From Candidatus Saccharimonadota bacterium (lineage in GTDB: Bacteria; Patescibacteriota; Patescibacteriia; 2-12-FULL-60-25): a stretch of DNA of 32,000 nt. The notes beneath the pieces are model-generated. The model did not search any database and had not been told where the DNA came from. It worked only from the letters and a program-made list of their open reading frames with translations. The stretch is from contig CP064964.1 of the NCBI GenBank assembly GCA_016699205.1, forward strand, positions 900,001-932,000. The letters run 5' to 3'. Shown one piece after another: positions 8,423 to 28,753 of this stretch (position 1 is the stretch's first letter; each line of letters starts with the position of its first letter). The translations under genes and the position numbers were made by a program.

Positions 8423-9700
8423 ATGTGGGAAAAGCTCATGCAAGCTTGGCGTGTGAAAGAGGTGCGCAATGGCCTCCTCTTTGTGCTCGGAATGATGATC
8501 ATCTTCCGCGTCATGGCCAATATCCCGCTGCCGGGAGTCGATCTTATCGCGCTCAAGCGTTTCTTTGAGGCGAACCAGGTTCTCGGTCTCCTGAACTTGT
8601 TCTCGGGCGGTACCATTGAAAACTTCAGTATCGTGGCACTGGGTGTCGCTCCGTATATTACGGCGTCGATTATTTTCCAGTTGTTGGCGATGATTTTTCC
8701 TCGTCTCGAGGAAATCCAGAAAGATGGAGAGGCCGGACAGCGCCGTATCAACCAGTGGACGCGCATGCTAACGATTCCGCTCGCCATCATCCAGTCATTC
8801 AGCTTGCTGCAATTGCTCGGTCAGTCGGCGACCCCGATTTTGACCAATGCCGATCCGCTGCACATCGTGATGATTATCGCGACCGTGACCGGTGGAACCA
8901 TGTTGCTCATGTGGATGGGTGAATTGATGAGCGAGAAGAAAGTCGGCAACGGCATCTCGATGCTTATCTTTGCCGGTATTATTGCCGGATTGCCGAGCTC
9001 GCTTTCGCAGCTTTTGGCAACGACGGACACCTCGCAGTGGTTGACCTATGTGCTGTACGCCGCCGTGGCGATCGGTATGGTTGCCGGTGTCGTGTTTGTG
9101 TCTGAAGGCCAGCGCAATGTGCCGGTGCAGTATGCCCGTCAGTCGCGCGGTTCTAGCGGTTCGATTGGCGGCGTCGGTTCATCGCTTCCGTTGCGCGTGA
9201 ACTTGACCGGTGTTATTCCGATCATTTTTGCCATCTCGCTCTTGCTCTTCCCGTCGGTGATTGCCCAATTCTTTACGCAGGCGCGTACGGTTTGGATCTC
9301 ACAGGCTGCGACATGGGTGATCGTGACCTTGCAGAATCAGACGGTATACGCCGTGCTCTACTTCTCGTTGGTCGTGATCTTCACGTACTTCTACACGTCG
9401 ATTGTGTTCCACCCGGACCGTATCGCCGAGAACATTCAAAAGCAGGGCGGATTTATTCCGGGTATTCGCCCGGGTAAGCCGACGGCCGAGTATCTCCAGA
9501 GCGTTGTGAATCGCATCACGCTTGGCGGAGCTCTCTTCCTTGGTCTTATTGCCGTCGCCCCGTTGATTGCGGAGGCGGCACTTGGTACGCAGTTGATCGC
9601 CCTTGGCGGTACATCGATTTTGATCGTTGTTTCCGTCGTCGTTGAATCGATTAAGCAGATCCAGTCACAGATCACGATGCGCGAGTACGACGTGTACTAA
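8423..9700 (+). CDS. secY: preprotein translocase subunit SecY
   Basis: 425 aa, about 10 hydrophobic segments, ...GVAPYITASIIFQLL... SecY signature; canonical position after rplO. Confidence 0.95.
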   Translation: MWEKLMQAWRVKEVRNGLLFVLGMMIIFRVMANIPLPGVDLIALKRFFEANQVLGLLNLFSGGTIENFSIVALGVAPYITASIIFQLLAMIFPRLEEIQKDGEAGQRRINQWTRMLTIPLAIIQSFSLLQLLGQSATPILTNADPLHIVMIIATVTGGTMLLMWMGELMSEKKVGNGISMLIFAGIIAGLPSSLSQLLATTDTSQWLTYVLYAAVAIGMVAGVVFVSEGQRNVPVQYARQSRGSSGSIGGVGSSLPLRVNLTGVIPIIFAISLLLFPSVIAQFFTQARTVWISQAATWVIVTLQNQTVYAVLYFSLVVIFTYFYTSIVFHPDRIAENIQKQGGFIPGIRPGKPTAEYLQSVVNRITLGGALFLGLIAVAPLIAEAALGTQLIALGGTSILIVVSVVVESIKQIQSQITMREYDVY

Positions 9701-9713
9701 AGCATCAAGCAGT

Positions 9714-9772
9714 AAACATGGAACATAGAGCATCTGAGCGGTATAATGCTCCAGGCTCTATGTTCCATGTTT
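9714..9772 (+). terminator. 18-bp perfect inverted repeat hairpin (AAACATGGAACATAGAGC / GCTCTATGTTCCATGTTT) with 23-nt loop containing TATAAT, followed by a T run
   Basis: Arms at 9714..9731 and 9755..9772 are exact reverse complements; the loop has a nested GAGC/GCTC stem around GGTATAAT; TTTT follows. Confidence 0.5.
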
Positions 9773-9779
9773 TATAGCT

Positions 9780-10430
9780 ATGGCACGTGTACGCTTACGA
9801 GCCCTTTTGTTTGGTCCCAATGGGGCCGGCAAGACCACGCAAGGCCAACTTTTGGCCGAGCGTTATAGCGTTCCATTTGTGTCTGCCGGAAATGTTTTGC
9901 GGGCAGAGATCGCTGAGAAAACGGCGATTGGAAAAATGGTTGAGTCGTATGTGGAAGCGGGTATGCTTGCGCCGGATGAATTAGTTGATGCGATCGTGCT
10001 TAAGCGGCTCAAAGGGTTGGCCATGGAACGCGGTTATGTACTTGATGGATTTCCGCGTAATGTGGAGCAAGCTGTGGCGCTCGATAAACTATTAAAACCG
10101 AATCTTGCCATCCAGTTAAAGCTGTCGGATGCCAGCGCGCTCAAACGGCTGAAGGGGAGATTTGTTTGCGAAGGATGCCGAAGTGTTTTTCATCGGGAAT
10201 TTGGGTTGGAGGATATGTTGTGTACGGTTTGCGGAGGAAAGCTTGTAACACGTAAAGATGATGCCGAGGATGCGGTGCGGCGCCGGCTCGCGGTTTATCA
10301 TTTTATGACCGAGCCATTGGCGGCGCATTATCGACAGAGAGGAATTTTGCTTGCCGTTAATGCGGATCAGTCGATTGCGGATTTACATGAAGAGTTGTGC
10401 AAGAAAACACAGAAGCTCGGATTCGCCTGA
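9780..10430 (+). CDS. adk: adenylate kinase (Cys4 zinc lid)
   Basis: P-loop GPNGAGKTT; lid CEGC...CTVCGG; canonical position after secY. Confidence 0.93.
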   Translation: MARVRLRALLFGPNGAGKTTQGQLLAERYSVPFVSAGNVLRAEIAEKTAIGKMVESYVEAGMLAPDELVDAIVLKRLKGLAMERGYVLDGFPRNVEQAVALDKLLKPNLAIQLKLSDASALKRLKGRFVCEGCRSVFHREFGLEDMLCTVCGGKLVTRKDDAEDAVRRRLAVYHFMTEPLAAHYRQRGILLAVNADQSIADLHEELCKKTQKLGFA

Positions 10431-10433
10431 TCT

Positions 10434-11216
10434 ATGTCCATGATTAAAACGCCGGAAGAAATTGAGGCGCTACGCGAAGGCGGAGCGCTGCTTTCACGTA
10501 CGCTCGCGGAAATCCGTAAGGCGTGTGTGGCCGGTGTTACAAGTGAAGAGCTTGATGCGATTGCGATCAAGCGTTTTGCGGAAGCCGGAGGGGAGCCGAG
10601 TTTTCTTGGGTATAAAATCGACAAAGACGGCTCGGCGTTTCCGGGGGCGCTTTGTGTTTCGATCAATGATGAAGTCGTGCACGGACTGCCGATTCCGGCG
10701 CGTGTGATTAAAGAAGGAGATATTGTCGGACTTGATATCGGGGTTTGGTATAAGGGTTTGTGTACGGATATGGCGACGACGGTTATTGTCGGGAAGACGG
10801 ATGAGAAGACGCGGAAGCTTGTCGAGGATACACGCGAGTCGCTTGTCCGTGCGCTTCAGGAGGTGCGTGCTGGAAAATTTGTGCACGATATCAGTAATGC
10901 AATCGACGATTATTTGACGCCAAAGGGGTACGGTATTGTCAAAGATTTGGTTGGCCATGGCGTTGGACATGCGGTTCATGAAGAGCCTCAGATTCCGCAT
11001 TATCGTGAACGCCGTGCGCCGCGGATTAAGTTGGAGAAGGGTATGGTTCTTGCGATTGAACCAATGGTGACGCTTGGCGATTGGCGCGTGTACATGAAGG
11101 ATGATCAGTGGACTATCGCAACGGAGGATGGGAGTACGTCGGCGCATTTTGAGGTGACAGTGGCGGTCACGGATACGGGATATGAGCTCATTACCCCTTG
11201 GCCGGATCAAGGGTAA
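10434..11216 (+). CDS. map: type I methionine aminopeptidase
   Basis: Metal-ligand pattern GLDIG...CTDMA...GHGVGHAVHEEP...LAIEPM...AHFE; alternative ATG at 10440. Confidence 0.95.
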   Translation: MSMIKTPEEIEALREGGALLSRTLAEIRKACVAGVTSEELDAIAIKRFAEAGGEPSFLGYKIDKDGSAFPGALCVSINDEVVHGLPIPARVIKEGDIVGLDIGVWYKGLCTDMATTVIVGKTDEKTRKLVEDTRESLVRALQEVRAGKFVHDISNAIDDYLTPKGYGIVKDLVGHGVGHAVHEEPQIPHYRERRAPRIKLEKGMVLAIEPMVTLGDWRVYMKDDQWTIATEDGSTSAHFEVTVAVTDTGYELITPWPDQG

Positions 11217-12465: not shown

Positions 12466-13276
12466 ATGCCGGAATTACCAGAAGTCGAGACTGTAAGACG
12501 TCAATTACATGCCGGTTTGGCGGGCAAAATGATTGTATCGGTGACGCTTTTGAAGTCGGGGAGGGAGAAGCCGGTTGGGAAGCGATTTGTTGAGGTTGTT
12601 GTCGGGAAAACAATCGAGGGTGTTGAGCGGCGTGCGAAGCTGCTTGTTTATCGATTTACCGATGGAACGGCGATGACGGCGCATTTGAAAATGACGGGGA
12701 AGTTCGTTTTTGTTGATGACGAGTATGTATCGACCAAAACATGATCGAATGATTTTTGAATTAGGAGATACGCGATTGGTTTGGAATGATGTAAGGCGAT
12801 TTGGTTTTGTGCATTTTGTTTCCGGAAAAGAGCTGGAGGAGATTTTATCGAAATATGGACCGGAGCCGCTGGAGTCGCATGTCACGCTACTCGCGACACG
12901 CTTCATCAAGCCAAAGACGAGAATGGTGAAGGCGGCGCTTTTGAATCAGGCGGTGATTGCAGGAGTTGGGAATATTTATGCGGATGAAGCGTGCCATCGA
13001 GCGGGGATTTTGCCGACGAGACGATTGGGAAAGATGAAAGAAGCGGATCGAATAAATTTAATAAAGCATTTGAAAGAGTTGCTGGATGAAGCGGTGAAGC
13101 AGCGGGGGACGAGTGCGAATGATTATGTGGATACGGAGGGGAAAAAGGGAGGGTTTTTATCGCTGTTGCGGGTGTATGGGAGGGAAGGAGAGAAGTGTTT
13201 GAATTGCGGAGGTGCGATCAAGAGAATAGTTGTGGCGCAGAGAGGGACGCATTATTGCGGAGGGTGTCAGAAATAA
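12466..13276 (+). pseudogene. mutM: formamidopyrimidine-DNA glycosylase, interrupted by a frameshift
   Basis: MPELPEVETVRR... (catalytic Pro2/Glu3) in frame 1 stops at 12744; ...KHDRMIFELGDTRLVWNDVRRFG...CLNCGG...HYCGGCQ zinc finger continues in frame 2; removing one A from the A4 run 12736..12739 restores ...DDEYVSTKHDRM... Confidence 0.85.
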
Positions 13277-13282
13277 AAATGT

Positions 13283-13316
13283 AAAAACCCTCCGACTCAG
13301 TTGTCGGAGGGTTTTT
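13283..13316. terminator. bidirectional intrinsic terminator (14-bp stem, 6-nt loop)
   Basis: AAAAACCCTCCGAC (13283..13296) / GTCGGAGGGTTTTT (13303..13316), between convergent genes. Confidence 0.7.
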
Positions 13317-13333
13317 AAGAGCAAGACCGAGCT

Positions 13334-13558
13334 TCAGCGCAGGAGGCTCATTGCTAGGAAGTAGAATCCGAGGAAGAAGCCGAGCATCAGTAGACCGGCG
13401 ATCGTGAAAGCGATCCAGCCGAGCGCTGTCTTGGGCTCCGTATCTGCGGGTTTGGGTGGTTCGATGCCCTGGGCACGTAGCTCGGCTTCCTTGCGCTTGC
13501 GCTCTTCACGTTCGAGCTTGGCGTCGATCTCTGCATCGGCACGGGTGATTCTGGTCAT
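13334..13558 (-). CDS. small C-terminally anchored membrane protein (74 aa)
   Basis: GGAGGA SD 5 nt upstream of the ATG; charged helical N-terminal part plus one C-terminal TM segment (WIAFTIAGLLMLGFFLGFYFLAM). Confidence 0.6.
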   Translation of the reverse strand: MTRITRADAEIDAKLEREERKRKEAELRAQGIEPPKPADTEPKTALGWIAFTIAGLLMLGFFLGFYFLAMSLLR

Positions 13559-13661
13559 CAGCTTCCTCCGAAGGAGCGGGTTTTTTGCTATCGAAATCTT
13601 GGCTTTTATCGAGGGTTTTTGTCAATAAATGTTGGTTTTTTGGCTAAGATCGATCTCCGTC

Positions 13662-13713
13662 TAAAAACCTTATAAAAACTTTGTTTTTGCTTATTTACTT
13701 TATCTGTAAAAAC
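13662..13713 (+). promoter_or_regulatory. three direct copies of TAAAAAC upstream of the response-regulator gene
   Basis: Copies start at 13662, 13673 (11-bp spacing) and 13707 (34 bp further). Confidence 0.25.
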
Positions 13714-13729
13714 GCTACTCTTGGCCTGT

Positions 13730-14401
13730 ATGCGATTACTTGTCGTAGAAGATGATCGCCAGGTTTCACAAGCGTTAAAGGATGTTCTTACGAAACAGTC
13801 TTTTAGCGTTGATACGACGGCGACGGGGGAGGATGCTTTGCGTTTAGCGAACGATGTTGCTTACGATGTCATTCTACTTGATTATGTCTTGCCTGGTATT
13901 GATGGAAAGCAAGTTTGCAAGATATTGCGCGAGCGCGGATTTCATACGCCGATCTTGATGTTGACTGTCCGATGCGAGACATCGGACAAAGTCTGCGCTT
14001 TGGATGAAGGTGCGGATGATTATTTGACCAAGCCGTTTTCAACGGATGAATTGGTTGCGCGCGTGCGTGCATTGCTGCGACGTTCGAAGGCGTTCCAGTC
14101 GGATACGTTTCAGTTGGATGATTTGGTTATCGACGGCAAACGTCAGCGTGTTGTTCGTGGTCAGCGCGAGATTTATTTGACTCGAAAAGAATTTGGTTTG
14201 TTGGAGTATCTCATGCGCAATCAGGGCGTTGTGCTTTCCCGTACGGATATCATGGAGCATGTTTGGGATAAGTCGGCTGACCCTGGATCGAATACGATCG
14301 AGACGCACATGATGACGCTTCGTAAGAAGGTCGATGAGGCGGGGAAGTCAAAACTTATCCACACGGTACAAGGGCGTGGTTACAAGATAGAAGTGCAGTA
14401 G
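13730..14401 (+). CDS. OmpR/PhoB-family response regulator
   Basis: Receiver MRLLVVEDD...ILLDYVLPGIDG...TKPF; winged helix ...LTRKEFGLLEYLMRN...TVQGRGYKI; ATG 13730 preferred over TTG 13721. Confidence 0.92.
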   Translation: MRLLVVEDDRQVSQALKDVLTKQSFSVDTTATGEDALRLANDVAYDVILLDYVLPGIDGKQVCKILRERGFHTPILMLTVRCETSDKVCALDEGADDYLTKPFSTDELVARVRALLRRSKAFQSDTFQLDDLVIDGKRQRVVRGQREIYLTRKEFGLLEYLMRNQGVVLSRTDIMEHVWDKSADPGSNTIETHMMTLRKKVDEAGKSKLIHTVQGRGYKIEVQ

Positions 14402-14513: not shown

Positions 14514-14627
14514 ATGAACAAGCTCATCGAGAAGGTTCTCTCGGACGCATCTGTGCGTACGAATGGATCAGCTGGCTCTGTAGCCATCGCACTCGCTTCT
14601 GAAGAGTTCGCACCTTGGGGCCACTAG
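14514..14627 (+). CDS. 37-aa mini-ORF MNKLIEKVLSDASVRTNGSAGSVAIALASEEFAPWGH, candidate signalling-peptide precursor
   Basis: In-frame ATG inside listed ORF 14445..14627; the preceding 23 codons are AT-rich and overlap the repeat/promoter-like sequence; lies between regulator and kinase and is followed by a hairpin. Confidence 0.4.
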   Translation: MNKLIEKVLSDASVRTNGSAGSVAIALASEEFAPWGH

Positions 14628-14630
14628 TAT

Positions 14631-14702
14631 AAAAGAGACGATCCTTGCGGAAATCATGTTTTTTACATACGTTAGTTTCACCGCATGAAGATCGTCTCTT
14701 TT
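14631..14702 (+). other. long-range hairpin (13-bp perfect stem) enclosing the kinase start codon
   Basis: AAAAGAGACGATC 14631..14643 / GATCGTCTCTTTT 14690..14702; additional TGCGG/CCGCA pairing 14646..14650 / 14681..14685; T6 run 14699..14704. Confidence 0.5.
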
Positions 14703-16071
14703 TTGTACCGATTTTTCATCTCGCCTGTCAGCGAAGATGAGGATGGTAAGCGCCAAGAGTATATTCTAAATATTCTCCTGGTAAGTGCTTCGGCGCTATT
14801 GTTTTGCTTGTTTTTGATCGTTTGTTTGCAGCAAGCCTTCATCAAAGGCTATCAAGGTATTTCACCTGTCATAGCGTTTTTAGCTACAGTATTTTTTTCT
14901 AGCTTGTTGCTTCTTTCGCGGAAGGGGTTTTCTCGTATAGCCTCGTATTCCATTGTTGGGATTTTATTTCTTTATATTTTTTATGCGAATTATTCCTGGG
15001 GGCCAGATTTGCCTATTACGTGGATCCTGTATTGCTTTCTTATCACTATTTCTGGAATTTTGATCTCATCGCGTTTTGCTTTTTTTGTCACCACTGCGAT
15101 CGCTTCTGCTTTGATCTGGCTTACTTGGATGTTGAATGGCGGATACCTCGTACTTGCTCGAGATTGGAAGCAAACAAGTTTTTTATCTGGAGACGCCGTG
15201 GCAGCTTCTATCGCGTTTGCTTTGATCGCTATTTTTTCTTGGTTAGCAAATCGCGATCTTCGCGCTTCACTTCAGAGAGCACGTGTTTCGGAAGCGGCAT
15301 TACAAGTAGAACGTGATCAGCTTGAAATTAAAGTAGAAGAACGCACCAAACAGTTAAAGGAAGCTCAGGAAATCCAGTTGGAGCAGATGACGCGTTTTGC
15401 CGAGTTTGGCCAGCTTGCGAGCGGCATCATGCATGATTTGGCTAATCCGCTTACATCAATGTCGATCAATTTGCAGATGGTGAAGGATCAGGTGCCAGAG
15501 GATGTGCGGGATACAAATACATATATGGACCAGGCGCTACAAGCGACGAAGCGCATGGAGGAACTGGTGCAGGTTGCGCGACAGCAGTTTCAAAAGAAGC
15601 CGGATACGATTCCGTTTTCTTGGTGATGAGATTGAGCAAGCGGTGCAATTGCTGCAATCCAAAGCTCGGCCAGCGCATGTTTCCTTTGATTTGATGGATA
15701 TTGAACGGATCGAGTCTGTCGGAAGTCCGTTGAAGTTCCATCGGGTTGTCATGAATCTTTTGGCGAACGCCATTGAAGCCTATGCCGAATCCGATGTCGC
15801 TTATGAAGATCGTCTTATTCGGGTAACCTGCCACGAGAACCAGGGTGATGCGGTTATTGAGATTATTGATAAAGCCGGAGGAATTTCAAGCGAGCATTTG
15901 GAAAAGATTTTTAATCCGTTTTTTACAACCAAGAAAACCGGTAGTGGAATCGGATTGCCGACCGTGAAAGAGATTCTTCAGAAAGATTTTTCTGCGACGA
16001 TCGATGCCACAAGTACCAAAGATCAGACGGTATTTGAAATTCGTCTGCCGATACGCAAGAATCTAACTTGA
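14685..16071 (+). pseudogene. sensor histidine kinase with about 6 TM segments, interrupted by a frameshift
   Basis: Polytopic N-terminal half, coiled coil, H-box ASGIMHDLANPLT in frame 0 stops at 15626; N-box VVMNLLANAIEA, G1 [16 protein letters not shown]2 GSGIGLP continue in frame 1; removing one T from T4 15615..15618 gives ...KKPDTIPFLGDEIEQAVQLL... Confidence 0.85.
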
Positions 16072-16072
16072 T

Positions 16073-16936
16073 ATGGATATCGGCATCCGTGAACGGCTAT
16101 TGAGCACGGTTCGAAATTCACAGGATGTTGACGGCGGATTTACCAGCCTGAGCTCGCCGGACCCGGTTCATTTTTTGTCGTCGAGCCAGGCTTATCGGAC
16201 GAGTTTTGTGGCGGCGCATGTTTTGATAGCGCTTGCATCGTCGCGGGTTGAGGGTGCGGAAGATATCAAGGAAAAGATTGCCAGCTTTCTCTTGCGGCAA
16301 ATTTCTGAAACGGGTGCCGTGAATTATTGGGCGAGAGATTCAATCGAGGCAAAAACGAAACCGTATCCTGATGATCTTGATGATACGGCTTGCGTGATTG
16401 CCGGCTTAGCTTTGCATGATAAGAAGATTTTGGACGGCGAGTTACTTGGAAAAATTGTCGCTGCTTTACTCGCTTGCGAAGTCCAGCCGGGCGGGCCTTA
16501 TCGAACATGGCTTATTTCTGCTGATGCGAATCCTGTTTGGCGAGATATTGATCCGACTGTGAACGCACATCTGGCTTTTGCTTTGGGGAGTATTGAGATT
16601 GATTTGCCTGGTTTGGATGATTATTTGAGTAGCGTTTTGAACGATCAACAACTCCAATCGCCTTATTATCCAAATGAACTTTCCGCACTGTCTGCTTTAT
16701 CGAGACGGCCTCAGGGGCGTGAATCTGCGATTGTCGGACGTGTTCTCGCGTTACGGAATGGATTGACATGGGGAAATCCTGTGGCTGACGCGCTGGCTTT
16801 GGGGATATTGTTGCGTTTGGGGGATGTGAGCGGTTCATGGGGGTCTGAGATTGAACAATTGGCTCGAGCGGAACAGAGCCCTGCGCCCTACGCTTTTTGT
16901 ATTGATCCATCGCAGAAAGGCGTGAAGCATTTTTGA
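16073..16936 (+). CDS. prenyltransferase / squalene-cyclase-repeat (alpha/alpha barrel) protein with class II terpene cyclase motif DxDDTA
   Basis: QDVDGGF repeat; PYPDDLDDTACV (16370..16390) resembles the squalene-hopene cyclase catalytic motif; starts 1 nt after the kinase stop; ends at TGA 16934..16936. Confidence 0.7.
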   Translation: MDIGIRERLLSTVRNSQDVDGGFTSLSSPDPVHFLSSSQAYRTSFVAAHVLIALASSRVEGAEDIKEKIASFLLRQISETGAVNYWARDSIEAKTKPYPDDLDDTACVIAGLALHDKKILDGELLGKIVAALLACEVQPGGPYRTWLISADANPVWRDIDPTVNAHLAFALGSIEIDLPGLDDYLSSVLNDQQLQSPYYPNELSALSALSRRPQGRESAIVGRVLALRNGLTWGNPVADALALGILLRLGDVSGSWGSEIEQLARAEQSPAPYAFCIDPSQKGVKHF

Positions 16937-16948
16937 GGAGCATCGGCT

Positions 16949-18001
16949 TTGACGGCGGCGCTTCTTCTCGAGGCGCTATCGCTGGTCAGCGTGGATACTG
17001 TTGTGCAGCCAAGTTATTCAAGGGCAGATGAAATACATGAGCGCATTGTTGAACAAGCGTATGTTTTTATACAGAGTCTTGCGCCTGAGTTTTCAAAAGC
17101 GGCTCGCGTAGCAATCGAGTTGGCTATAATAAAAGATACGAAACGCCAGATTACGCTTACGCCGTTTATGGCAGCTGGCTTACTCGGTGAGCGTGGAGAA
17201 AAGGTATCGGAGCGTGCGATTGAATCGCTTGGGCTTGCGAGTCTGTTTGGCTGGCTTTCGTATACGCTTTTGGATGATGTGATGGATGGAGATCGTGATG
17301 CGAGCGCATTGCCTTTAGCTTCGACCTTTTTGCGAAAGATGCAGAGCGTTTTTGATGAAGTGCTTCCGGAGAATACGCATTTTCATCGATGGGTGATGCG
17401 GATGATGAATCGCGTTGATGCTTCCAATGCTTGGGAATTATCTTATTGTCGTTTTCAAGTTAAAGACGGTCGGATTTTTTTGCCAGAAACCATTCCTTCA
17501 TTTCGCGAGGACTGGATGCTGTTTGGGCGATCGATCGGACATGCGATTGGTCCGGTTGGTATTTTGTGCGAGCTTGGAGAGTCGCCGGAGAATGTTGTTG
17601 GCCAAGAGATGCTTGCTCGTTATTGTGAATTAATTCTCGTCAAACAGATGCATGATGATGCGCATGATTGGGAGTCGGATTTGATGCGCGGTCAGATGAA
17701 TTCTGCAGGCGCTCGCGTGCTTGAGCGATGGTATCGATTGCATCCGGAGAAACGAGGGAGCCAAGTTCTTATCGATGAAGTCAGGGAAGAGTGGCGGACG
17801 ATTTTTTGGATGGAGATTCTGCCAGTGTATTCCCAAGAAATTGTGCAGCGATGTGAGCGTTCTATTGAAAAGCTGCGAAGGTCAGAGCATCTTGTTACGC
17901 CGGAGAATCTGATTCATGGCTTTGAACGAGTCGCTAAAGGTGCGCAGGAAGCGCTTTCAGGGCGCGAAGAAATGCTGAAGTTTCTGAAGACTTTGAAGTA
18001 G
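16949..18001 (+). CDS. class I isoprenoid-synthase-fold protein (two Asp-rich motifs), ComQ / polyprenyl-synthase-like
   Basis: YTLLDDVMDGD (DDVMD 17273..17287) and QMHDDAHDWESDLMRGQMN (DDAHD 17654..17668); TTG start 8 nt after GAGGAG; same reading frame as 16073..16936. Confidence 0.65.
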   Translation: MTAALLLEALSLVSVDTVVQPSYSRADEIHERIVEQAYVFIQSLAPEFSKAARVAIELAIIKDTKRQITLTPFMAAGLLGERGEKVSERAIESLGLASLFGWLSYTLLDDVMDGDRDASALPLASTFLRKMQSVFDEVLPENTHFHRWVMRMMNRVDASNAWELSYCRFQVKDGRIFLPETIPSFREDWMLFGRSIGHAIGPVGILCELGESPENVVGQEMLARYCELILVKQMHDDAHDWESDLMRGQMNSAGARVLERWYRLHPEKRGSQVLIDEVREEWRTIFWMEILPVYSQEIVQRCERSIEKLRRSEHLVTPENLIHGFERVAKGAQEALSGREEMLKFLKTLK

Positions 18002-21928: not shown

Positions 21929-22433
21929 ATTTTGAGTAGATGTAGAGACCGTTACGTTTTTCTTTCAGCGTCCAATTTGGGAATTGGAAGCCGAGGGAAA
22001 TGACTTGCGATCCTGGTTTTAATTCGCGCTGCAATTTTTCTTCCAATCTTCCCATGATGTAGATGACGCCAAAGACGATGATGACGTCGAAATCGGAAAG
22101 ATCGGCTTTCCAGAGGTCTTTCCAATGTGTTTTCGCGAGATGATCGAGATGTAGTTGTTTACTTTTTCTACGTGACCACCAGACGAGTACGGGATTGATT
22201 TCAAAACCGTGCGCCTCGATTCCTTGTTTGGCGAGCGCGATGAGAATGCGGCCGTCTCCGGAGCCGATGTCGGCAATTTTAAGATTTGGACGCTTATCGA
22301 TGAGCTCGAGAATCTTTTCCACGCCTTCATGTTTTGTAGGGATAAAGGGCGCGCCCCTGTAGAGCAACCAGACGGCGCCCACATCGACCAAGATGAGGAG
22401 GGCGGCGATCCAGACCAATGGTTCTTGCAACAT
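21927..22433 (-). CDS. class I SAM-dependent methyltransferase with N-terminal TM segment
   Basis: Motif I IADIGSGDGRILIALA; N-terminal hydrophobic helix. Confidence 0.8.
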   Translation of the reverse strand: MLQEPLVWIAALLILVDVGAVWLLYRGAPFIPTKHEGVEKILELIDKRPNLKIADIGSGDGRILIALAKQGIEAHGFEINPVLVWWSRRKSKQLHLDHLAKTHWKDLWKADLSDFDVIIVFGVIYIMGRLEEKLQRELKPGSQVISLGFQFPNWTLKEKRNGLYIYSK

Positions 22434-22463
22434 CGCGTATCAGGTTATACTCTCCGTCGGAAT

Positions 22464-24098
22464 ATGGCCAAGAAATCGAGTACAAGTGCATTGACCAAGG
22501 AACAGCATGCCGCGCAAGACGCGCGCTATGCGGAAGGGCATTCCTACGATTATGTGATTATCGGGACGGGGAGTTCCGCGCTTACCGTCGGTGCTTTGCT
22601 TGCGAATGCCGGGCACAAGGTCTGCCTGATTGAGGCGCATGATATCCCCGGAGGTTATGCGCAGACGTTCCACACGGGCGATTATCATTTTTGTGCGCAG
22701 GTGCATTACATTTGGGGATGTGCGCCGGGTGGAAAGATTTACGAGTTTTTGAAGCGTGTCGGTTTGGAGAAGGATATTACGTTTGAACTTCTCGATAAAA
22801 ATGGGTATGACCACATGGTGATGCCGGATGGAAAACGTGTTCCTATTCCGTATGGTTGGGACAAGCTGATTGAGAACGTGGTTGCGGCGTATCCGGACCA
22901 GAAATCTACGATGGAAAAATTTGTCGCTGTTCTACGGAAGGTGCGCGAGGAATTCCGGACGTTTCCCGAGACGATCAAGCCGATTGACTATCTCAAGGCG
23001 TACAAATATCCGACGATTATCAAGTATCGAAACGCAACGGTGCAAGATTTATTTGATGAATGTGGTTTGAGCAAGGAAGCGCAAGCTGTTTTGTGCGCCA
23101 ATGCGGGCGACTACATGCTTCCGCCGGAGAAGCTCTCGTTGTTTATGTATATCGCTTTGTTTGGCGGGTACAATACGGGCGCCTATTATCCGACAAAGCA
23201 CTTTAAGTATTATATTCAGCGCTTGGCCGACTTTATTACGAGTCACGAGGGCTGCCATATTTATTACGAAACGCCTGTCGATAAGATTAACGTTGAGAAC
23301 GGCATTGTAACGAGTGTTGGAACGGCAAATGGCAAAACGTTTACGGCAAAGAACTTTATTTGTAACGGCGATCCGCAGACGATGGCAAAGAAAATCGGTT
23401 TGGAGAAGTTTTCTGCCGACGACAAAAAGAAACTATCGTATCAGTACTCGCAAGCCGGTGTTGTTGTGTATCTTGGATTGAAGGGAATCGATCTGCGTGA
23501 TTACGGTTTTGGCTCCTTCAATATCTGGCATCTTGAGGATTGGGATATGAATGAAATGTGGCGCCAGATGGGCGCAACCAATTTTGAAAAGCCATGGCTT
23601 TTCATGTCGACGCCAACGCTGCATACGGATGCGGGCGGTACGACGCCGGGACCTGATTGCCAGATTCTCGAGCTCGCATCGTACACAGAATACCAGCCAT
23701 TCAAGGATGCGCAGGACAAGAGTTACGCGGAATATATGAAGTTGAAGTTGAAGACGGCGGAAAAGATGATCGATCTAGTCGAGAAAAAATATGTGCCGGA
23801 TATCCGGAAGCATATAGTCGTGAAAACGATTGGGACATCGGTGACGAATGAGGATTTCTGTTTGGCTCCAAAGGGGAATGCGTATGGTTCGGATATGACT
23901 CCGGAGCAAGTCAGCAAGAATCGTCTCAAAGCAAAAACACCGTTTCCAAATTTTTGGTGGTGTAACGCGTCGAGCGGATGGGCGGGGATGTACGGAACTG
24001 TGTCGACAGGAATGGGGCTTTATATGGATTTAACCGGAGATCGGTTCTACGAGGGTCCAAAAGCACCGAGCGATGACGAGTTTATCCGAGCGCTTTAA
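22464..24098 (+). CDS. FAD-dependent oxidoreductase, phytoene desaturase (CrtI)-like family
   Basis: ATG 22464; YDYVIIGTGSSALTVGALLANAGHKVCLIEAHDIPGG dinucleotide fold; 544 aa; the upstream part of ORF 22209.. overlaps the methyltransferase and is rejected. Confidence 0.8.
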   Translation: MAKKSSTSALTKEQHAAQDARYAEGHSYDYVIIGTGSSALTVGALLANAGHKVCLIEAHDIPGGYAQTFHTGDYHFCAQVHYIWGCAPGGKIYEFLKRVGLEKDITFELLDKNGYDHMVMPDGKRVPIPYGWDKLIENVVAAYPDQKSTMEKFVAVLRKVREEFRTFPETIKPIDYLKAYKYPTIIKYRNATVQDLFDECGLSKEAQAVLCANAGDYMLPPEKLSLFMYIALFGGYNTGAYYPTKHFKYYIQRLADFITSHEGCHIYYETPVDKINVENGIVTSVGTANGKTFTAKNFICNGDPQTMAKKIGLEKFSADDKKKLSYQYSQAGVVVYLGLKGIDLRDYGFGSFNIWHLEDWDMNEMWRQMGATNFEKPWLFMSTPTLHTDAGGTTPGPDCQILELASYTEYQPFKDAQDKSYAEYMKLKLKTAEKMIDLVEKKYVPDIRKHIVVKTIGTSVTNEDFCLAPKGNAYGSDMTPEQVSKNRLKAKTPFPNFWWCNASSGWAGMYGTVSTGMGLYMDLTGDRFYEGPKAPSDDEFIRAL

Positions 24099-25368
24099 TC
24101 ACTTGCTCCGCGACGCGTTCTCCATTACGGAGCGCGCCTTCCGTCCACGGGCCGTTCAGATAGTCGCCGGAGAAGAAGACGTTGTTTGCGCCTTGACCGT
24201 CATGCATGAAGTTGCTGACGCGCTGCAGATGGCCGTGGGAGAATTTGGGCATCGCTTCTACCCAGCGTTCCAAATCATGGTTTTGTAGTTGATCGATCGA
24301 ATCGAACCATGGGCATACCTTGATCAGTTCGGGTTTTACGGCTGAGAAAATTTCTTCGTCTGTGTTTCCGATCAGTGTTTTTGCAAAATCTTCATGCAGC
24401 CATGCGCAGATCAATGTTTTTTCGCCAATGACCAGCTCTTCACCTTTCATCGCCTCGTTAACATATCCGGAAATTTTTGAGCTTTCCACAAACGGGACCC
24501 AGACGACGGCGGTGTCGGGGAGAAGGTTGCGATCGACGCGGAAGGCGATGCTGATCGACGAGGCGTATTGGGTATTCGTCAGTACATCGGATTGTTGTTC
24601 CGTCGGGTTTATATAGATCTTGCTGCTAACCGTGGCTTGAGAGGCGAGGACAACCGCGTCGAATGTTTGTGTCGTGCCTTTTGAGTCGACCAGGTTCACG
24701 TTCTCGCCGCCGACAATTTCTTTGACGGGGGAGTTGAGATGTATGTTGAGGCGTTCAGCAAATGCATTTGGCAACGCCTGCATGCCTCCTTTGGTGCGGT
24801 GAAGATGCCATCGACCCGGTTCTGTCTCAATGGATTTCATGATGCCTTTCAATGCGGCGACGCTGATTTCTTCCGCGCGGTGGAATTGATACGTTGAGGT
24901 AAATGCGTCGACGTAATAATCTGCGACGTCTTTTCCGGCCCAGCGGCGCATGTAGTCGTAAGCGTTGTCGGTGTCTTGTCCAGCGAGTTCGTCGAGATCC
25001 AAGAAATTGCCAATATTTTTTGCAAGGAAAAATTGCCACGTGAAACGCAGCTTGGAGAGCATGCCAACGGCGTCCGCAAACGGAACGAGTTCTCCCTTTT
25101 GGAAAATGGCGTATTTGAGAAAGCGCATCTTTTCCCATTCGATGCCAAATTCCTTACAGTAATATTTAATTCGATCGTAGAGGTCGCACAAATGGTCGGC
25201 GCCGAGGTCAAAGACGAATCCGTCTTTGGTGCGCGAGCTCATGCGCCCGCCGACGTAGGCGTTTTTTTCATAGACCGTCACCTCATAACCGTTTTGTTTT
25301 AACGTATAGGCGCAGGCGAGTCCGGCGATTCCGGCGCCGATGACGGCAATGCGTTTTTTCTCAGACAT
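24082..25368 (-). CDS. FAD-dependent oxidoreductase, amine oxidase / protoporphyrinogen oxidase / HpnE-like family
   Basis: KRIAVIGAGIAGLACAYTLKQNGYEVTVYEKNAYVGGR; C-terminal ...VFFSGDYLNGPWTEGALRNG...; 17-nt 3' overlap with the convergent gene. Confidence 0.8.
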   Translation of the reverse strand: MSEKKRIAVIGAGIAGLACAYTLKQNGYEVTVYEKNAYVGGRMSSRTKDGFVFDLGADHLCDLYDRIKYYCKEFGIEWEKMRFLKYAIFQKGELVPFADAVGMLSKLRFTWQFFLAKNIGNFLDLDELAGQDTDNAYDYMRRWAGKDVADYYVDAFTSTYQFHRAEEISVAALKGIMKSIETEPGRWHLHRTKGGMQALPNAFAERLNIHLNSPVKEIVGGENVNLVDSKGTTQTFDAVVLASQATVSSKIYINPTEQQSDVLTNTQYASSISIAFRVDRNLLPDTAVVWVPFVESSKISGYVNEAMKGEELVIGEKTLICAWLHEDFAKTLIGNTDEEIFSAVKPELIKVCPWFDSIDQLQNHDLERWVEAMPKFSHGHLQRVSNFMHDGQGANNVFFSGDYLNGPWTEGALRNGERVAEQVIKALG

Positions 25369-26654: not shown

Positions 26655-26728
26655 AGGGGCGTCGTATAATGGTAGTACAACGGTCTCCAAAACCGTTAGC
26701 GTGGGTTCGATTCCCCCCGCCCCTGCCA
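26655..26728 (+). tRNA. trnW: tRNA-Trp (anticodon CCA), 3' CCA encoded
   Basis: 7-bp acceptor stem AGGGGCG/CGCCCCT; anticodon stem ACGGT/ACCGT with loop CTCCAAA (CCA at 26687..26689); T arm GGGTTCGATTCCC. Confidence 0.93.
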
Positions 26729-27747: not shown

Positions 27748-28239
27748 ATGAAAATATATCTCGCAGCATTGCTTGTCGTTGCGACTCTCGGTGCAGGCTG
27801 TTCTACAGCGCCGGCTGTTCCTACAAGGCCTTTGCAAGCTCCGCCTGTGGCACAGGAGCCATCGGGCACGACGACGCTTGATCTGAGCGGAAAGGGTCTG
27901 ACGTCGATCCCTGCGGACGTCTTTACGAGAACGGATCTTGAGCGGCTTGATGTTTCCGAAAATCGTTTGACGGGTGCTCCGCAGTCGCAGATTGGACAGC
28001 TTGAAAATTTGAAGTTTCTTGATTTGAGCAACAATTCGTTAACAGGTTTACCCGCCGAGCTCGGACGGTTAAGCAAGCTGGAGACGCTCGACGCATCAAA
28101 TAACAAATTGACCGGTCTTCCGATGGAGCTTGGTAATCTCAAGCAGCTGCGTGTTCTTGATGTTTCCGGCAACAACTACTCAAAACAGGATCTTGATCAG
28201 ATCGCGGCGAAATTACCGAATACGGAAATTCGCAGGTAG
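27748..28239 (+). CDS. leucine-rich-repeat lipoprotein
   Basis: Lipobox LGAGC; about five 23-residue LRRs (LxxLxLSxNxLTGLPxELGxL). Confidence 0.85.
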
Positions 28240-28252
28240 AATAGGTGTGTCT

Positions 28253-28753
28253 ATGAATGAATCAACAAAGGTCGCTGTGTTGGCCGGCGGATGCTTCTGG
28301 GGGATGGAGGATTTGTTTCGGAAGCAAAAAGGTGTGATTGATACCGAGACGGGGTATACGGGAGGTTCAAATGAGCATCCGACGTATCAGAGTCATCCGG
28401 GTCATGCCGAGGCTTTAAAGATTACGTACGATCCCAAGCTTACGAGCTACCCTGAATTGTTGGATTTCTTTTTCCGTATCCATGATCCGACGACGATGAA
28501 TCGACAGGGGAATGATGTTGGAAGCGCGTATCGATCGGCGATTTTCTATGGGTCGGAAGAGGAGAAGAAAGATGCGGAGCGTTTGATCGATCTTGTGAAC
28601 AAGTCTAAAAATTGGCCTGATCCGGTCGTGACGACGCTAGAGCCGCTTGGGAAATTTACACCGGCGGAACCGGAGCATCAGGATTATCTTCAGCAGAATC
28701 CCGGAGGCTATACGTGTCATTTTGTGAGAAGCGTACAAAGCTATCTTTCTTGA
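28253..28753 (+). CDS. msrA: peptide-methionine (S)-S-oxide reductase
   Basis: ATG 28253; [16 protein letters not shown]... catalytic GCFWG; ...[12 protein letters not shown]... Confidence 0.93.

Follow-up and report, generated by a model that had tools for sequence, protein, structure and literature searches.

A stretch of 32,000 nucleotides from a Candidatus Saccharimonadota bacterium (assembly GCA_016699205.1, contig CP064964.1, positions 900,001 to 932,000; hereafter the window) contains, at 16073..18001, two open reading frames (ORFs) that are, on comparison with their relatives, one gene for a two-domain enzyme of about 642 residues, cut by a single-base change of a Cys codon (TGC or TGT) to TGA. 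The predicted enzyme joins a class II terpene cyclase barrel to a domain with the trans-isoprenyl diphosphate synthase (trans-IDS) fold, and its gene stands in a conserved cassette with a response regulator, a membrane histidine kinase and a small peptide that carries a Trp near its C-terminus. We suggest that the enzyme is probably a Trp prenyltransferase of the ComQ, PalQ or ChrPC kind fused to a cyclase, and that it matures a pheromone-like peptide across the Patescibacteria.

One gene interrupted by a stop codon

The first ORF (16073..16936, ATG start, 287 amino acids (aa)) and the second (16949..18001, TTG start, 350 aa) share one frame, 876 nucleotides (nt) apart. Both the ORF list and the raw sequence give the TGA at 16934..16936 as the only in-frame stop between them, and the hexamer GAGGAG (16935..16940) lies 8 nt 5' of the TTG at 16949. 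This arrangement was correctly described in an earlier, sequence-only reading of the window, which offered two explanations: a fusion of roughly 640 aa broken by a nonsense change or an error, or a translationally coupled complex of two proteins. The first ORF is not on record as a called gene.

The comparison of orthologues, which the same reading had proposed as a check, favors the broken fusion. A profile search of 1.84 billion representative proteins yielded 2787 relatives, 1221 of them at E <= 1e-30, and a scan of one genome per GTDB species yielded 369, the best 80 of which underlie all locus counts given here. The homologues that the first ORF yielded initially were incomplete proteins encoded in Patescibacteria and Saccharimonadales metagenome bins, many of which continue without a break from the barrel with its DxDD motif to the motifs that mark the second ORF. 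Of the 150 best relatives, nearly all are 600-700 aa long and span both halves; the halves are fused in each of 142 full-length relatives from the databases, and 79 of the 80 species-level GTDB loci hold a single ORF (median 654 aa), the remaining one leaving the end of its contig. Two contigs, L091 (1.02 Mb) and L092, encode a SecY identical to that of the window and carry the gene intact at 642 aa, which is the read-through length in the window. The read-through product is identical to the intact L092 protein at 617 of 643 positions (96%) and to P0100, a 644-aa homologue encoded at locus L002, at 58.6% of positions from end to end, and it retains 67 of the 75 family positions that are conserved at >=90%, a number equal to that of intact relatives.

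The stop itself lies within a strongly conserved stretch, Y-x-G-S-x-A-L-T-T-A, in which Gly289 occurs in 137, Leu293 in 134 and Thr294 in 131 of the 142 full-length relatives. The column occupied by the TGA holds Ala (82), Ser (26), His (9), Gly (7), Asn (6), Cys (4) or Val (2) in these relatives, and the corresponding codon is TGC in L092 and L002 and TGT in L091. The earlier suggestion that the stop arose from TGG is ruled out, given that Trp occurs in none of the 142 and Cys in the closest ones. The column aligns with F518 of the bacterial drimenol synthase AsDMS, an active-site residue in that enzyme (PMC12365925). That the sequence beyond the stop looks like a continuation of the barrel had also been noticed from the letters, and in the AlphaFold2 model of P0100 this sequence, GASALTAALLLEAL, indeed maps to the last barrel helix (residues 292-307). 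The break thus falls in the loop before this helix and not at a domain boundary, and a linker (308-318) then leads to the second domain.

Because the relatives are fused and the genomes with identical SecY carry the gene intact with a Cys codon, the split is not an evolved two-gene design. We consider it highly improbable that the split is functional, with termination at the TGA, restart at the TTG behind GAGGAG and reassembly of the fragments. The spacing of the hexamer, the position of the break in a loop just before the last helix, and the lack of any further visible decay at the conserved positions are what such a scenario would lead one to expect. However, the 142 relatives and the GTDB loci include no split orthologue, the gene is whole, with Cys at the stop position, in relatives at 96% identity, and a restart at the TTG would truncate the barrel and leave out G289 and S/A290, both of them nearly invariant. 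The restart signal has a different explanation as well: its core, GGAGCA, encodes a conserved Gly-Ala pair, and the A that creates the stop lengthens this core to GAGGAG. Unrelated frame breaks in neighboring genes (see below) likewise argue against a functional split, and the coupled two-protein complex of the sequence-only reading is not upheld.

Decoding of the TGA, either as selenocysteine or as Gly under genetic code 25, can be given practically no weight: the codon aligns with Cys codons in L002, L091 and L092 and a hairpin lies 3' of it, but the hairpin does not stand out from shuffled sequence (z -1.65; of 200 shuffles, 12 did as well), Rfam gives no match to a selenocysteine insertion sequence or a tRNA-Sec within the window, the column is mostly Ala or Ser and is no redox site, and a recoded TGA is ruled out since TGA ends adk at 216 aa, the length of its orthologue, and also ends the histidine kinase at its orthologous end, which makes it a genuine stop in the genome of the window. 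For annotation, both ORFs belong together as a single gene marked as disrupted, and should not be called as two proteins.

A class II cyclase barrel fused to a trans-IDS fold

Single-sequence searches of both halves against Pfam, NCBIfam and the PDB gave no matches, the full-length relatives fall into no Pfam or NCBIfam family, and the folds were resolved only by profiles and structure models. In an hmmsearch of the PDB, the family profile matches the terpene cyclase beta domain (TC-beta) of AsDMS (9mhs/9m7d; E 1.1e-15; residues 267-523 of the 9mhs chain). The P0100 model (pLDDT 95.3, pTM 0.89) contains an (alpha/alpha)6 barrel, a single one of ~310 residues, and Foldseek places it closest to AsDMS (E 1e-8, rmsd 3.3-3.7 A), followed by MstE (7.8e-6) and squalene-hopene cyclase (SHC; 5e-4), with a small squalene-hopene cyclase also among the matches. 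The acid motif DLDDTA comprises residues 101-106 (16373..16390). D101 and D103 align with D331 and D333 of AsDMS and are Asp in 142 and 141 of the 142 relatives, respectively; Y198 and Y199 align with Y426 and Y427 and are Tyr in 141 and 142; and AsDMS F281 aligns with a conserved Phe of the family. In AsDMS the mutants D331A/N and D333N are inactive, and Y427 forms a hydrogen bond to the catalytic Asp (PMC12365925).

By profile and model, the N-terminal half is the beta domain of a class II terpene cyclase, made of one barrel and homologous to the cyclase domain of AsDMS. The structure and profile searches that the sequence-only reading had called for place it among cyclases with an aligned DxDD. 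That reading had also found the DxDD unusually close to the N-terminus for a canonical cyclase, which is explained by the barrel consisting of one beta domain into which no gamma domain is inserted, an architecture shared with MstE and the cyclase domain of AsDMS. The residues that grip the diphosphate of farnesyl diphosphate (FPP) in AsDMS, namely Y373, R378, R380, R425 and R513 (PMC12365925), are not conserved in the family, as would be expected if the substrate were a prenylated peptide and not FPP.

The AlphaFold2 model of the second ORF is all-helical (pLDDT 95.2, pTM 0.89), and its closest Foldseek matches are synthases of FPP (FPPS), of geranylgeranyl diphosphate (GGPP; GGPPS) and of hexaprenyl diphosphate, with TM scores of 0.6-0.73, E values of ~1e-4 and 10-17% identity. 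Together with both Asp-rich motifs, the second of which has its DDAHD core at 17654..17668, this predicts a trans-IDS (class I alpha) fold for the C-terminal half. Membership among canonical trans-isoprenyl diphosphate synthases is nevertheless not supported: there is no match to PF00348 (polyprenyl_synt), for the second ORF at E values up to 10 and for seven full-length relatives up to 1, whereas a genuine polyprenyl synthetase at locus L013 matches this model at 9.8e-59. The alpha domain has a single near-invariant basic residue, an Arg, as judged from conservation and not from a structural alignment. On the other hand, the DDxxD of the first Asp-rich motif (FARM) is conserved, as is a Gln just upstream of the Asp with which the second (SARM) begins. 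This Gln and the first SARM Asp are reported to recognize indole in PalQ, Ord1 and ChrPC-type enzymes (reviewed in PMC13290415), but the pair is also present in ordinary trans-IDS and does not discriminate. A bifunctional diterpene synthase of the alpha-beta-gamma type was also considered and is ruled out by the one barrel of ~310 residues and by a second motif of the form DDxxDxxxD instead of NSE/DTE.

A four-gene cassette with a Trp-containing peptide

In the window and at every related locus first examined, the start of the enzyme gene coincides with the kinase stop or lies a few bases from it. A regulator of the OmpR type is close by, and the space between regulator and kinase holds a small ORF, the small ORFs being homologous to one another. 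The partners were counted at the 64 GTDB loci with enough upstream sequence, with a peptide profile built from 7 seed peptides and a match defined as a copy on the same strand just upstream of the kinase; enzyme, precursor and kinase were required on one strand, while the regulator was counted irrespective of strand. The kinase is present at 63 of these loci, the peptide at 62 and the regulator at 63, with all three at 61.

The 75 distinct peptides are 34-40 aa long and begin with a motif resembling M-x-x-L-x-x-K-[IV]-L-T-D-K-S-A-R, in which L9 is invariant and R15 is found in all but one. Every one of them has a Trp 1-6 residues before the stop, which is the sole Trp in 72 and is preceded by Pro in 49; among control small ORFs, 15.7% have a Trp within the last nine residues. 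Neither Pfam nor NCBIfam has a model for these peptides. The kinase shows 5-6 transmembrane segments in a hydropathy scan, followed by HisKA and HATPase_c domains, and has essentially no external domain. The regulator of the window is 94% identical over 223 aa to its orthologues in L091 and L092.

No other neighbor is conserved across the cassette loci, with the one exception of a canonical polyprenyl synthetase (PF00348, E 1e-58), which adjoins the cassette at 14 of the 80 loci and in 10 of these 14 is on the same strand and directly downstream. The adjacent synthase is likely the supplier of the prenyl donor. The lack of a PF00348 match in the fused enzyme, taken with a canonical synthetase beside the cassette, suggests that another enzyme makes the donor. 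As partners of the cassette, DUF4015, YceI (which has a polyisoprenoid-binding fold), a sigma factor and fpg were rejected, each being present at only one of the 80 loci.

The C-terminal tails of the peptides vary even among close relatives, reading ...EEFAPWGH, ...EEYAPWGH and ...EAYAPWF across the window, L091 (16474..) and L092 (16083..), and the DNA of the cassette is 84.7% identical to that of L091 compared with 92.7% for the ribosomal operon, although ribosomal genes are a biased comparator. By analogy, tail variation and cassette divergence are reminiscent of the pherotype variation at comQXP. At a further locus, L004, the mini-ORF recurs downstream of the main cassette (9193..11009, minus strand) as an inverted, seemingly degraded second copy, accompanied by pieces of a kinase and a regulator and flanked by an inverted duplication of a block with a PAS kinase, a receiver and a glycosyltransferase.

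Proposed function and alternative readings

Starting from the unity of the gene, its two folds, the motif alignment and the conserved cassette, we suggest a mechanism whose substrate, order of reactions and signaling role are drawn from analogy with ComQ, PalQ, StheQ and ChrPC. The C-terminal trans-IDS-fold domain would bind a C10-C20 prenyl diphosphate through its Asp-rich motifs and Mg2+ and alkylate the peptide at the indole ring of its conserved Trp near the C-terminus; the DxDD acid of the N-terminal beta domain would then donate a proton to the distal double bond of the prenyl chain now attached and so cyclize it. The matured lipopeptide, presumably trimmed and exported, would be detected within the membrane by the kinase encoded next to the enzyme, and this kinase would signal through the regulator. 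Peptide Trp prenylation with cyclization is favored because a Trp-containing peptide and a two-component system accompany the gene and the diphosphate-binding arginines are absent, and maturation of a peptide pheromone is the more likely chemistry when set against synthesis of a free terpene.

Several observations weigh against this proposal. The second Asp-rich motif is complete, with Asp where ComQ and StheQ have Asn, and N-to-D mutants of ComQ and StheQ lose 90-98% of their activity (bioRxiv 10.64898/2026.08.29.745113); the alpha domain may instead have a role in metal-dependent ionization or elongation. The regulator is of the OmpR and not the ComA type, and the gene order is unlike that of comQXPA. 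Across the 80 loci the cassette includes no conserved protease or exporter, and at the 66 loci with no adjacent polyprenyl synthase the source of FPP or GGPP is not evident from the locus.

The sequence-only reading had proposed a bifunctional class II/class I enzyme. Both folds and their motifs are borne out, including a DxDD aligned to that of AsDMS, but the free-terpene chemistry that such a description implies is probably not what the enzyme carries out, in view of the peptide context and the missing arginines. In its explicit form this alternative, which we consider unlikely, has the beta domain protonating and cyclizing FPP or GGPP and the alpha domain ionizing the cyclic diphosphate to a free terpene or terpene alcohol, with the peptide and the two-component system serving only in regulation. 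It would make use of all the catalytic-type motifs present in the two folds: the spacing of D236, D240 and D244 (i, i+4, i+8) could form a metal-B site, the closest solved relative of the barrel uses FPP, and a polyprenyl synthetase adjoins some of the cassettes. Yet the Tyr and arginines with which that relative holds the diphosphate are not conserved, and the alpha domain has but one near-invariant basic residue. Furthermore, regulation alone leaves unexplained a peptide of 34-40 aa with an invariant Trp at 62 of 64 loci, and the characterized fusions of both folds that are encoded beside Trp peptides modify the peptide (PMC13290415).

A prenyltransferase-cyclase of the fungal type, in which the alpha domain would elongate prenyl diphosphates and pass them on to the cyclase it is fused to, with no peptide being modified, is quite improbable. 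The nearest structural neighbors of the alpha domain are indeed FPPS and GGPPS, and the FARM, the SARM and an FQxxDD-like Gln are intact, but the domain fails to match PF00348 even at E values of 1-10 where a genuine synthase from the same loci scores 1e-58, and the basic residues that bind isopentenyl diphosphate are apparently missing (one conserved Arg, again from conservation and not structural alignment). A separate synthase gene at 14 loci and a cyclase without the diphosphate-binding arginines fit this alternative no better.

Returning to Trp prenylation and cyclization of a peptide, some parts of such a system are known already, namely fused prenyltransferase-cyclase enzymes that mature peptides made on ribosomes and modified after translation (RiPPs), and Trp-prenylated pheromones. 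What appears undescribed, from the literature searched and from curated family libraries, is the range across the Candidate Phyla Radiation (CPR), the order with the cyclase first, the very short conserved precursors and the near-obligatory coupling to a two-component system. The literature search returned no paper tying Patescibacteria or CPR bacteria to terpene cyclases or ComX. The primary paper on ChrPC (Hubrich et al., Chem, 2024) reportedly describes widespread cryptic enzyme families, which may already include these proteins. The cassette enzyme occurs in at least 369 species-level genomes, and in the sources consulted its members are nameless or labeled "hypothetical protein".

Members of the CPR are ultra-small, for the most part uncultured, and live largely as episymbionts; their communication with one another or with hosts is an open question. 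We tentatively extend our suggestion to a circuit present throughout the phylum, in which a Trp-prenylated, cyclized peptide is sensed by the kinase and of which the strain in the window has naturally lost both production and sensing; as a whole this extension is possible but rather doubtful. The cassette is compact, consisting of one peptide, one enzyme, one kinase and one regulator. If the proposal holds, it would provide a large and diverse set of enzymes that lipidate and cyclize peptides at Trp, and ComX-like signaling, known from the Firmicutes and proposed for the Chloroflexi, would extend to a large and mostly uncultured group of bacteria.

Three lesions within five genes

Besides the TGA, the window contains two frame breaks, in fpg and in the kinase gene, which are confined to the window and intact in its relatives. 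In the kinase, tblastn puts residues 1-313 in frame 3 and residues 314-462 in frame 1; against TTT ATA CTT GGC in relatives, the window has TTT T CTT GGT, which amounts to a net change of -2 nt. The intact alleles at the fpg, kinase and TGA sites are AAA, TTTATACTT and TGC/TGT, respectively. The three lesions fall within five consecutive genes, which a simple placement argument puts at p ~0.05 and thus as mildly non-random. Over the ~19 kb compared with L092, the fpg and kinase breaks are the only net frame-breaking indels; a generally high rate of indel errors in the window was considered and is unsupported, the many paired 1-nt gaps being alignment artefacts in divergent codons.

Since 67 of the 75 conserved residues of the enzyme are kept, the lesion must be either very recent or artefactual. 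We lean slightly towards an error of consensus or assembly over a very recent mutation. At a little under even chances, the lesions are real, and the strain would then have recently lost both signal maturation (through the TGA) and sensing (through the kinase frameshift), becoming a signal-null and signal-blind variant. That two of the three lesions strike the cassette, that the remainder of the sequence aligned with L092 is free of net frame-breaking indels, and that the change from ATA to T in the kinase is no simple homopolymer slip would agree with this. On the other side stand the break in the unrelated fpg, a +1 in a run of A, the absence of visible secondary decay, and similar fragmentation in other long metagenome contigs of the family.

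Two such contigs are L005 (ENA ERZ25039540 contig_12275) and L004 (ERZ25039549), in which the kinase, the fusion gene and even ftsZ are spread over several ORFs. This suggests that these are indel-rich assemblies and that broken copies of the fusion family arise technically in public data.

Features of the window

The coordinates of the gene, its motifs and its neighbors are collected in Table 1. Between fpg and the regulator (13277..13720), the window has a 74-aa ORF on the minus strand (13334..13558), which is also present in L002 and L092, while the gap of L091 contains two 115-aa ORFs (14887..15636). Further downstream, two convergent genes for FAD-dependent oxidoreductases of the amine-oxidase/CrtI-like kind lie at 22209..24098 (plus strand) and 24082..25368 (minus strand; Amino_oxidase, E 5e-45, for this second gene); the family includes phytoene desaturases, so that a link to isoprenoids is possible. 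The sole RNA gene detected in the window is a tRNA-Trp (CCA) at 26655..26728. A leucine-rich-repeat ORF (27748..28239) overlaps the start of an MsrA (PMSR) ORF (28130..28753) on the same strand in another frame, which probably reflects an over-extended TTG start call for msrA and not a frameshift.

Table 1. Features of the disrupted gene, its cassette and related loci (positions are those of the window unless a locus is named).
Feature	Position	Strand	Basis or remark
Conceptual 642-codon cyclase-prenyltransferase fusion gene with one internal stop	16073..18001	+	Alignment to intact relatives
Predicted class II terpene cyclase beta-domain barrel, minus last helix	16073..16933	+	Profile and Foldseek matches
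DDLDDT, DxDD general-acid motif	16370..16387	+	Aligned to AsDMS D331/D333
SPYYP motif	16658..16672	+	Y198/Y199 aligned to AsDMS Y426/Y427
Premature TGA	16934..16936	+	Column A/S/H/G/N/C/V in 142 relatives; Cys codon in closest relatives
Last barrel helix GASALTAALLLEALSLVS, stranded 3' of stop	16937..16990	+	Helix 292-307 of the P0100 model
Predicted all-alpha trans-IDS-fold domain, start approximate	17021..17998	+	AlphaFold2 and Foldseek
First Asp-rich motif, DDVMD	17273..17287	+	D109, D113 invariant; D110 >=90% (74 sequences)
Second motif, Q-M-H-D-D-A-H-D-W-E-S-D	17645..17680	+	Q233, D236, D240, D244 invariant; D237, H239, W241 >=90% (74 sequences)
fpg (formamidopyrimidine-DNA glycosylase), frame-broken	12466..13276		+1 A in A run at 12735..12738; intact at 269-270 aa in L001, L091, L092
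OmpR-type response regulator, intact	13721..14401	+	Syntenic orthologues with Response_reg and Trans_reg_C
37-aa mini-ORF MNKLIEKVLSDASVRTNGSAGSVAIALASEEFAPWGH, putative precursor peptide with leader-like N-terminal motif and Trp third from end	14514..14627	+	Peptide profile
Membrane histidine kinase, frame-broken at ~15615..15619	14685..16071	+	Intact at 462 aa in L002, L091, L092
Polyprenyl diphosphate synthase, examples	L013:6962-7912, L014:4444-5544, L044:6847-7914		PF00348

Comparison with known systems

Among systems that modify peptides at Trp, precedents are ComQXPA of Bacillus, PalP-PalX-PalQ of Paenibacillus, in which a trans-IDS-fold enzyme and a Trp precursor are accompanied by an adjacent histidine kinase (PMC10853753), and StheQ/StheX of Sphaerobacter, whose precursor has its Trp second from the C-terminus (bioRxiv 10.64898/2026.08.29.745113). 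All three share with the cassette a trans-IDS-fold enzyme whose neighbor is a small precursor bearing a Trp close to its C-terminus, and ComQXPA and PalPXQ also share the adjacent membrane histidine kinase, while the StheQ paper mentions no kinase. However, ComQ, PalQ and StheQ have no cyclase domain, and their precursors are unrelated in sequence. ComQ and StheQ further differ in carrying a pseudo-SARM, N-D-x-x-D (N215-D216-x-x-D219 in StheQ), where the family has Q-x-x-D-D-x-x-D (D236-D237-x-x-D240). Because Asp thus occupies the position of the functionally important Asn that defines the pseudo-SARM, membership in the ComQ family proper (IPR033965) is ruled out. ComQXPA differs in addition in its ComA-type (LuxR/GerE) regulator and its Q-X-P-A order, compared with a Trans_reg_C (OmpR) regulator and the order regulator, peptide, kinase, enzyme here.

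For the barrel, AsDMS, in which TC-beta is joined to a HAD domain (PDB 9mhs, 9m7d), is the closest solved relative, likewise a single beta domain with no gamma and with the aligned Asp pair and Tyr. It is unlike the family in its HAD phosphatase partner, its Arg/Tyr cluster for the diphosphate of FPP and its DxDTT in place of DxDDT. MstE (PDB 6sbc), a monodomain class II meroterpenoid cyclase, is a structural match and a stand-alone beta barrel that cyclizes the prenyl chain which an aromatic head group already carries, but its substrate is a small molecule, and its acid motif is DxD and not DxDD (PMC12324236). The alpha-beta-gamma diterpene synthases of plants and fungi likewise unite in one chain the acid motif of class II with a domain of class I fold; in the family gamma is lacking, the alpha domain is nearer to prenyl diphosphate synthases, and the context is that of a peptide.

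The closest parallel for the whole enzyme is found in ChrPC, of which a 2026 review (PMC13290415) states that a trans-IDS-like P domain prenylates Trp with C10-C20 donors and that a fused MstE-like C domain then cyclizes the prenyl group. By that account, ChrPC resembles the family in holding a trans-IDS-like domain and an MstE-like single-barrel class II cyclase in one chain, encoded beside a Trp-containing precursor. It seems to be unlike the family in its domain order, the name "PC" suggesting the reverse of the cyclase-first arrangement, and in the 34-40 aa precursor with a leader-like motif of its own, the two-component cassette and the range across the Patescibacteria that mark the family. 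Likened by description and not by sequence comparison, the family would thus work like a ChrPC-type prenyltransferase-cyclase placed within a ComQXPA-like circuit.

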